64,000 nt of DNA from Solirubrobacteraceae bacterium (GTDB lineage Bacteria; Actinomycetota; Thermoleophilia; Solirubrobacterales; Solirubrobacteraceae), in assembly GCA_035473995.1 (NCBI GenBank), contig DATINR010000132.1, forward strand, positions 9,737-73,736. Direction: 5' to 3'. Both the position numbers and the translations under genes were made by a program. Below the pieces are notes generated by a model that saw only the letters and a program-made list of their open reading frames with translations, was not told where the DNA came from and made no database searches. Positions 11,647 through 12,621 of this stretch are shown here, piece by piece (position 1 is the first letter of the stretch; the number at the start of each line of letters is the position of its first letter).

Positions 11647-11662
11647 TGTGTCCGTGATCACA
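11647..11662 (+). promoter_or_regulatory. CRP/GlxR-like box TGTGT-N6-TCACA
   Basis: One mismatch to TGTGA-N6-TCACA; centred about 42 bp upstream of the start inferred from -10 TAGCCT (11685-11690). Confidence 0.5.
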
Positions 11663-11690
11663 GAACGACCTCCCCGGGACCTTCTAGCCT

Positions 11691-11706
11691 ACGAACAATT
11701 GTTCGA
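11691..11706. promoter_or_regulatory. LexA (SOS) box ACGAACAATTGTTCGA
   Basis: 15/16 match to actinobacterial TCGAAC-N4-GTTCGA; perfect 14-bp palindrome directly after -10 TAGCCT. Confidence 0.75.
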
Positions 11707-11707
11707 C

Positions 11708-11872
11708 TGCCGAGTCGTGACCGTCCATGGTCGCGAACGGGGGAACCACCGCCGGGCCCGACCGGGGCCCGGATGGGGCGAATCGCCCACTGATGTGGAC
11801 GTAACGCCCGGCCGACGCGCGGACTGTCCGCGCCGGCGCCGGTCGCGAGCCCGACAGCTAACCCCGTAGGCG
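11708..11872 (+). ncRNA. c-di-AMP riboswitch (ydaO/yuaA class)
   Basis: Ordered conserved segments GCCGAGTC...GGGGAACC...GGGGCGAATC...CCCGACAGCTAACCCCGTAGGC, then hairpin GCGG-AAA-CCGC, AAGGAGG RBS and a cell-wall enzyme gene (typical context). Confidence 0.85.
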
Positions 11873-11898
11873 GAAACCGCAAGGAGGTCTGGATCTAT

Positions 11899-12546
11899 AT
11901 GTACGCACCCGCGCCCCCGGCGCAGCCTGCTCTCGCGCTCGCACCCGTCGAGATCGCATCGACGACGCCGTCGTCCGGCGCAGCTCCGCTCGGGCGCCCG
12001 ACCTCGACCGCGCTGCACGTGCGCAAGGCGCGCCTGAACGTGCTCGACGGTCGCCGCGCCAGCGTCGCCGGCACGCTCAGCCCCGGACTCTCCGGACGCT
12101 CGATCGAGCTGCAGGCGATGGGCCCGCACGGCTGGCGCGAGGTCGCGCACACCCACACCGGCGCCGCCGGGCGCTTTCGCCTGCGCTACACCCCGCACGC
12201 CACCGGCAGCCGCCGCGTGCGCCTGCGCTTCGCCGGCGACGGCTATGACCTGCCCGCCCATCGCGTGCTCGGCAGGCTGAACGTCTACCGGCTCGCCGGC
12301 GCCTCCTGGTACGGCGGCGGCGGTTCGCTCGCCTGCGGCGGCTCGCTGACGAGCTCCACGCTCGGCGTCGCCAACAAGACGCTGCCCTGCGGCACGCTCG
12401 TCACGCTGCGCTACGGCGGGCGCTCCGTGCGCGTCCCCGTCGTCGATCGCGGCCCCTTCGTCGCCGGACGCGAATTCGACCTCACCGAAGCCACCAAGCA
12501 GGCGCTCGGCTTCGGCGACACCGGCGACGTTTGGACCACGCGCTAG
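11899..12546 (+). CDS. RlpA-like double-psi beta-barrel lytic transglycosylase
   Basis: ASWYG, VANKTLPCGT, VVDRGPF, EFDLT motifs; N-terminal beta-rich accessory domain. Confidence 0.85.
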   Translation: MYAPAPPAQPALALAPVEIASTTPSSGAAPLGRPTSTALHVRKARLNVLDGRRASVAGTLSPGLSGRSIELQAMGPHGWREVAHTHTGAAGRFRLRYTPHATGSRRVRLRFAGDGYDLPAHRVLGRLNVYRLAGASWYGGGGSLACGGSLTSSTLGVANKTLPCGTLVTLRYGGRSVRVPVVDRGPFVAGREFDLTEATKQALGFGDTGDVWTTR

Positions 12547-12579: not shown

Positions 12580-12621
12580 GGGGTGCCGAAATCCGCTGCA
12601 AAAGCGCCGTTTCGGCACCCC
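12580..12621 (+). terminator. Inverted repeat after rlpA-like gene
   Basis: GGGGTGCCGAAA (12580-12591) / TTTCGGCACCCC (12610-12621), perfect 12-bp arms. Confidence 0.55.

Follow-up and report, generated by a model that had tools for sequence, protein, structure and literature searches.

We analysed a 64-kb stretch of DNA (the window, contig C132:9737-73736) from a metagenome-assembled genome (MAG) of an uncultured soil member of the Solirubrobacteraceae (3.2 Mb, 70% G+C, 202 contigs), with a focus on the region at 11647-11898 of the window, which precedes a gene for a 215-amino-acid (aa) protein with an RlpA-type DPBB domain (open reading frame (ORF) at 11899..12546, ATG at 11899, Pfam DPBB_1). 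From 5' to 3', this region contains a palindrome of the CRP/FNR type, TGTGT-CCGTGA-TCACA (11647..11662), one mismatch away from TGTGA-N6-TCACA; a −10 hexamer of the TAnnnT type, TAGCCT (11685..11690), recognised from the sequence and from its footprint in orthologs; a LexA (SOS) box, CGAAC-AATT-GTTCG, i.e. the perfect 14-bp palindrome CGAACAATTGTTCG (11692..11705), within ACGAACAATTGTTCGA at 11691-11706; the aptamer of a ydaO-type riboswitch for cyclic di-AMP (c-di-AMP; Rfam RF00379, 11698..11888, a match to the full model), in which the 5' strand of P1 (GCCG) starts at 11708; and a Shine-Dalgarno (SD) sequence, AAGGAGG (11881..11887), a few nucleotides (nt) past the 3' strand of P1 and 11 nt before the ATG. 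All features of the window described here are on the plus strand, apart from the CRP/FNR-type palindrome and the LexA box, to which no strand is assigned. A previous sequence-only reading of the same DNA had listed the hexamer, ACGAACAATTGTTCGA, a ydaO-type leader, a ribosome-binding site and a DPBB ORF in this order, and each of these was found at the position given there.

Two sets of orthologs of the DPBB gene were compared, one from genomes of the same genus and one consisting of 80 oriented loci; the sets overlap, and counts from them are not independent. Counts for the promoter refer to those 69 loci of the 80-locus set that have a well-placed promoter, anchored on P1 of the riboswitch; these are species-level orthologs from Solirubrobacteraceae MAGs, with protein identity of 52-97%.

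The LexA box in the genome and in orthologs

The LexA box begins 1 nt after the conserved TAnnnT hexamer, covers the predicted transcription start, and is the single perfect CGAAC-N4-GTTCG site in the window, where a scan with a position weight matrix (PWM) detected no second box above 12 bits; no dinB gene was found in the window with a motif regular expression. Across the whole genome, 15 perfect CGAAC-N4-GTTCG sites were observed compared to about 3 expected from base composition, and six composition-matched control palindromes had 0 to 11 matches (five of the six had at most 3, and one had 11). The extended form CGAACA-NN-TGTTCG accounts for 9 of the 15 perfect sites (approximately 0.07 expected). 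The same motif is located upstream of lexA (TIGR00498, 218 bits), a gene for an imuB-like Y-family polymerase, comM/yifB, a radical SAM gene of the Rv2578c type, dnaB and uvrA (the latter assigned from its N-terminal sequence), as well as at two small, apparently leaderless genes without known function. By composition arithmetic, a perfect box would fall by chance into the slot of about 20 nt between −10 hexamer and P1 in at least one of the five c-di-AMP riboswitch leaders of the genome with a probability of approximately 10−4.

When scored with a PWM trained on nine other boxes of the same genome, with the site at 11692-11705 left out, the box in front of the DPBB gene reached 22.6 bits and ranked 11th genome-wide (23.6 bits for the uvrA box), with the next site at 15.9 bits. 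The genome-wide scan thus bore out the assignment of this palindrome to LexA in the sequence-only reading; of the motif assumed there, TCGAAC-N4-GTTCGA, the core CGAAC-N4-GTTCG stood and the leading T did not, given that CGAAC is mostly preceded by G or A in this genome, so that TCGAAC is not the local consensus. Judging from its sequence, the palindrome belongs to the organism's own class of SOS boxes. Several other SOS genes of the genome have start codons inside or directly past the box; overlap of the box with the core promoter is therefore a local rule.

The palindrome is kept in related genomes as well, as the same reading had supposed. Among the 69 anchored orthologs, 48 have a perfect box, 4 have a box with one mismatch and 17 have none; the figure that measures conservation without circularity is 52/69, the invariance of the arms within the box-bearing group being true by definition. 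Where present, the box is always located between the −10 hexamer and P1 of the riboswitch, and in 43 of the 48 orthologs with a perfect box, it ends 5-6 nt before CCGAGTCG of P1. The spacer of the box varies (AATT in 22, AACT in 10 and GATT in 9, along with five rarer forms, AGTT and GACT among them), and all spacers fit RRYY. On the protein tree, box-bearing loci are found in each of the two main halves, and at least four changes of state are required. Boxless loci often retain decayed remnants with altered spacing of the half-sites, e.g. TCGAATGCGTTCGA and TCGAATGACGTTCGA, and have sister taxa with perfect boxes. From this distribution, we infer that the box is an ancestral operator that was lost about four times.

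A wider distribution was sought with the pattern CGAAC-N4-GTTCG-N(1-12)-CCGARTC in 401 genomes of the class, with the reversed pattern as the control. There were 10 matches vs. 2 for the reversed control; only the two same-genus matches are riboswitches, and the other 8 of the 10 loci have no RF00379 match. At the stringency of this pattern, the combination of box and riboswitch looks restricted to the genus.

The flanks of the box are conserved to different extents: the two bases on its 3' side (GTTCG-AC) are almost invariant in the orthologs and the base on its 5' side is free, and TCGAC persists in some lineages that have lost the 5' arm. This asymmetry suggests an additional constraint on the first transcribed nucleotides, beyond LexA binding or pairing with the SD. 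In one ortholog, L073 (OY970362.1), the position of the LexA box is occupied by another perfect palindrome, TAAAA-GCGT-TTTTA, part of which is kept in the sister locus L085; this could be a chance occurrence or an operator swap.

Riboswitch leader, promoter and encoded protein

The match to RF00379 reaches 42.8 bits (gathering score 38; E = 1.3 × 10−6; model positions 1-134), is reproduced by a search of the whole genome, and is the sole Rfam match above the gathering score in the window, confirming the ydaO-type leader proposed from sequence inspection. Among the ortholog loci from other genomes in the same-genus set, 25 of 29 match RF00379 (41.8-61.1 bits). In the alignment of 61 orthologous leaders, which was built with MAFFT and RNAalifold, with no model-fitted alignment, 51 pairs were predicted, 19 of these show double-sided changes, and 96% of the cells are paired. 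The riboswitch is real and, judging from this covariation, under selection at the RNA level. AAGGAGG or GGAGG is kept at the SD position in the orthologs, and a scan with a terminator consensus found no terminator-like site between the aptamer and the gene. The genome holds five c-di-AMP riboswitches, and the four others have no LexA box. As assigned by eye, these four precede genes for an NlpC/P60-like protein, a protein resembling peptidoglycan-binding repeats, a second DPBB protein and an M23-like protein, and in each of the four leaders, a TAnnnT-like hexamer lies just 5' of the Rfam match.

In the ortholog footprint of the promoter, the T, the A and the final T of the −10 hexamer are kept. 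The gap between the end of TAnnnT and the box is 1 nt in 38 of the 48 orthologs with a perfect box and 2-4 nt in the remaining ones, and the first base of the box spacer is a purine (A or G) in all 48. Based on geometry, transcription is predicted to start at this purine, at 11697, 7 nt past the −10 hexamer, the same position as in the sequence-only reading. With this start, the LexA box would occupy approximately −5 to +9, the first base of P1 being near +12.

No recognisable −35 element and no sigma-70 −35/−10 pair was detected in the control region. Instead, nearly all anchored orthologs, whether or not they have a LexA box, carry a TGTGA-N6-TCACA site (at most two mismatches) whose centre is located 35-39 nt (mode 37) before the start of the LexA box. 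At the DPBB gene of the window, this centre precedes the predicted start by some 42.5 nt, which is the position of a class II activator, a value that depends on the predicted start. The approximately 20 nt between the CRP-like site and the −10 hexamer carry about 0 bits across the orthologs; it follows that the orthologous promoters have diverged without constraint outside the motifs. Contig C156 encodes a Crp-family protein (cNMP_binding, E = 4 × 10−26; HTH_Crp_2, E = 4 × 10−16) with an R-E-x-x-x-R recognition helix. Taken together, the conservation and the geometry on which the CRP assignment is based are probably indicative of a class II CRP-dependent promoter.

The encoded protein consists of an N-terminus predicted to be disordered (residues 1-33), an Ig-like beta-sandwich (approximately 38-125) and an RlpA-type DPBB domain (approximately 130-215), the latter with a match to Pfam DPBB_1 (PF03330, E = 4 × 10−13, residues 135-209). 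An AlphaFold2 model built on 45 orthologs has a mean pLDDT of 85.3, and the best match of its DPBB domain in the PDB is 4avr_A (the DPBB protein PA4485 of P. aeruginosa), with a target-normalised TM-score of 0.79, a root-mean-square deviation of 1.6 Å and 31% identity. The DRGP motif as well as Cys146 and Cys164 are invariant in the orthologs. The protein is, accordingly, an RlpA-type DPBB protein, as the sequence-only reading had it, whereas the name of lytic transglycosylase used there holds only at the level of the family: the scores are below the cut-offs of the rlpA families in NCBIfam (30.6 vs. 82.15 bits for TIGR00413 and 21.6 vs. 201 bits for PRK10672), and no classical signal peptide was seen. 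Both lytic transglycosylase activity and export are putative. The N-terminus (window 11899-11997), which begins with MYAPAPPAQPALALAPVEIAS, is kept across the orthologs as MYVPAxPAQPAxxALAPVxI; judged by eye, it contains no classical signal peptide, lipobox or hydrophobic core. No SPOR domain was matched in Pfam, and neither a LysM domain nor a transmembrane segment was found in the Pfam scan or in the model.

DisA, the c-di-AMP-producing enzyme first recognised as a scanner of DNA integrity, is often the only cyclase in Actinobacteria; the downstream targets of its signal after DNA damage are poorly defined, especially in Actinobacteria. In the present genome, which encodes LexA, DisA, RadA, RecA and the Crp-family protein, the sole protein with a DAC domain combines DAC with the DisA linker and a weak HhH match, i.e. 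it has the architecture of DisA, and disA is directly downstream of radA. No CdaA-type cyclase was detected in the genome, DisA being the only diadenylate cyclase found. On encountering stalled forks or Holliday junctions, DisA ceases to produce c-di-AMP (PMC10745434). With DisA as the sole detected cyclase, encoded next to radA, a low level of c-di-AMP may therefore also follow from DNA lesions, which is in keeping with the sequence-only reading, where DNA damage would release the riboswitch.

Proposed integration of the inputs and known systems

We consider it likely that 11647-11898 is a three-input control region of a monocistronic RlpA-type DPBB gene, subject to a Crp-type activator, the LexA repressor and a c-di-AMP off-switch; three inputs are counted because the conserved CRP-like site at 11647-11662 adds to the LexA box and the riboswitch. 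In this scheme, TAGCCT would act as a −10-only promoter lacking a −35 element and would probably depend on a Crp-family activator bound to TGTGT-N6-TCACA near −42. LexA, bound to CGAACAATTGTTCG over the start site, would stop initiation until its RecA-stimulated self-cleavage in the SOS response. The transcript would open directly with the riboswitch, in which the 3' strand of P1 is a few nt away from the SD, and bound c-di-AMP would lower expression, a direction modelled on other actinobacterial leaders of the ydaO type. Production of the protein would require both the removal of LexA and a low level of c-di-AMP, and probably a loaded Crp-type activator as well. Should c-di-AMP fall at lesions, the two layers would form a coherent double check on DNA integrity.

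Several observations weigh against this scheme or parts of it. The riboswitch in question is among the weakest-scoring copies and has four non-canonical pairs in one variable hairpin; the predicted transcription start has the −10 geometry as its sole basis; and the genome shows no excess of perfect TGTGA-N6-TCACA sites (1 observed vs. 0.57 expected), which leaves the CRP assignment without support at the level of a regulon. The 17 of 69 orthologs without a box imply that LexA control is dispensable in several lineages. The picture of the LexA regulon is incomplete, with recA beginning at the edge of contig C159 and its promoter lying outside the assembly, and the PWM scan found no box above 12 bits at radA-disA. 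In other bacteria, c-di-AMP is also a signal of osmotic conditions and of the state of the cell wall, so that the riboswitch may serve as an input for something other than DNA damage. Finally, a periplasmic or wall-located enzymatic role of the protein is uncertain because neither a classical signal peptide nor a lipobox was seen by eye.

A more specific proposal, namely, that the SOS response and the DisA/c-di-AMP signal converge in a coherent AND gate and that the Ig-like and DPBB protein is an SOS effector of the wall or division, a counterpart of ChiZ and YneA, is possible but in our estimate rather doubtful. It is favoured by DisA being the only detected DAC protein and adjoining radA, such that synthesis runs via the DNA-scanning cyclase (PMC10745434). 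These facts speak against the competing view that the signals are independent, with LexA reporting DNA damage and the riboswitch reporting osmotic, potassium or wall status, so that an ordinary riboswitch-run wall enzyme was additionally recruited to the SOS regulon. We rate this alternative as unlikely, although several lines of evidence favour it: all five c-di-AMP riboswitches precede genes of the cell-wall type and four of them lack a LexA box, which makes the riboswitch layer appear generic; the approximately four apparent losses of the box left the riboswitch in place; radA-disA has no LexA box; and c-di-AMP is tied to potassium homeostasis and wall maintenance in addition to DNA stress (PMC9960051).

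The remaining alternatives concern the palindrome itself. That it serves as the operator of a dimeric regulator other than LexA, or resembles a LexA box by accident and stays unoccupied in vivo, seems very improbable. The stronger conservation of the 3' flank (GTTCGAC) compared to the 5' flank and the survival of TCGAC in some boxless lineages would fit such a regulator, but lexA itself and canonical SOS genes have boxes with the very same core, and by PWM score the site belongs to the leading cluster, which is well separated from the sites ranked next; in addition, the arms stay constant in 48 species whose spacers vary freely, and the lost boxes show indels that alter the spacing of the half-sites, as is the case when operators of dimers decay. 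An action of the palindrome as RNA, either as a stabilising 5' hairpin or as an anti-SD segment of the expression platform, is likewise very improbable. Such a role is hinted at by the minimum free energy fold of the single sequence, which pairs GUUCGACU with GGUCUGGAUC beside the SD, and by RNAalifold, which draws the box as a 5-bp hairpin; however, with a start 7 nt past the −10 hexamer, only the 3' arm would be transcribed. An anti-SD role of the 3' arm was rejected: duplexes between the leader and the SD are no better than those of shuffled sequences (48 orthologs, mean z = +0.24, none below −1.64), and the partner past the SD varies freely while the leader is fixed. The 5' hairpin was rejected as well, given that the covariation it seems to show stems from loci that lack the box and are misaligned, and that all four one-mismatch variants are single-sided and uncompensated.

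For the three-input control region, the closest known layouts are those of rpfA and nlpC. St-Onge and colleagues reportedly described, in 2015, Crp control of rpfA in Streptomyces coelicolor. As a class, c-di-AMP riboswitches turn expression off, and in actinobacteria nearly all of them are found in front of cell-wall genes (PMC9960051). In Mycobacterium tuberculosis, rpfA has a candidate YdaO riboswitch (PMC3384566) and is under the control of the Crp-family protein Rv3676, according to Rickman et al. 2005 in the account that PMC10745434 gives of it; the riboswitch of S. coelicolor rpfA has no terminator (PMC9960051). As in the present case, rpfA of both species is a lytic-type wall gene preceded by a ydaO-type leader that lacks a canonical terminator, whereas the product has an Rpf domain in contrast to the Ig-like and DPBB protein here, and the present locus has an added LexA operator between the −10 hexamer and the riboswitch. 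The nlpC gene of Corynebacterium glutamicum (cg2402), which encodes a cell-wall peptidase, is repressed by a terminatorless ydaO-type riboswitch that most likely acts on translation, which matches the layout of an aptamer followed by the SD in front of the DPBB gene; C. glutamicum likewise has a DisA cyclase, with disA in an operon with radA (PMC9960051). No LexA box is reported at nlpC, LexA being mentioned only in connection with radA (PMC9960051). The situation in the present genome is the reverse: radA-disA is boxless, and a riboswitch-controlled gene has the box.

ChiZ (Rv2719c), YneA and DivS are SOS-induced factors of the wall or of division, and ChiZ is described as a cell-wall hydrolase (PMC3989709). 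Like the protein proposed here, ChiZ, YneA and DivS are controlled by LexA and the SOS response and act at the wall or the divisome after damage. However, they are membrane proteins encoded next to lexA, with LysM in YneA and ChiZ, and are not known to carry riboswitches, whereas the present protein has a DPBB domain and neither a transmembrane segment nor LysM, lexA is on another contig, and the divergent neighbour of lexA is an integrase-like gene. RlpA and PA4485 share the DPBB_1 domain with the DRGP motif; RlpA is a DPBB and SPOR lipoprotein and a lytic transglycosylase of the septal ring, whereas the protein analysed here lacks SPOR and a lipobox and has an added Ig-like domain.

Literature searches on LexA together with the c-di-AMP riboswitch yielded no paper on this stack, in agreement with the sequence-only reading, which knew of no such description, and no report was found of LexA control of rpfA or of any ydaO-controlled gene. 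Each layer is known separately; as far as can be told, the stack is undescribed. A sensor of c-di-AMP and a repressor responding to DNA damage would be placed within one control region of 200 nt that is strongly conserved across dozens of species, extending the tandems of transcription factors and riboswitches to LexA and adding an RlpA-type DPBB protein to the envelope factors under SOS control. If the AND gate exists, the DPBB gene would be a direct, genetically encoded read-out of DNA scanning by DisA in an actinobacterium; if the two layers carry unrelated signals, the locus would still be a clean natural promoter-leader with three inputs. In either case, some 250 bp of DNA make a compact construct for asking whether, and by what logic, the SOS response and c-di-AMP are integrated.

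Possible transcript end and other SOS boxes of the genome

Downstream of the DPBB gene, 34 nt past the stop codon, there is a perfect 12-bp inverted repeat, GGGGTGCCGAAA ... TTTCGGCACCCC (12580..12621), with an 18-nt loop and no T tract. This repeat may mark the end of the transcript, a weak assignment given that the terminator scan does not call it.

Several SOS boxes elsewhere in the genome (C42:6117, C46:29286, C66:24063 and C132:83984) read TATG-CGAACATATGTTCG-TATG, the box being followed immediately by a start codon, and in the radical SAM gene of the Rv2578c type, the start codon is inside the box spacer. The TATG-flanked boxes suggest leaderless SOS transcripts. The products of two such genes (208 aa and 106 aa) have no match in NCBIfam. 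The strong SOS box at C116:2320 (24.9 bits) is approximately 130 nt upstream of dnaB, which encodes the replicative helicase, an unusual member of an SOS regulon. On contig C180 (1255-1332), two SOS boxes, AAGCGAACATCTGTTCGTAA (30.4 bits) and ATGCGAACGTGTGTACGTAT (24.3 bits), are 58 nt apart, approximately 290-340 nt upstream of murA and opposite a VOC/glyoxalase-like gene. The pair may serve either of these genes or a small unannotated SOS gene between the boxes and murA. Should murA be the target, the organism would have a second connection from the SOS response to its cell wall.

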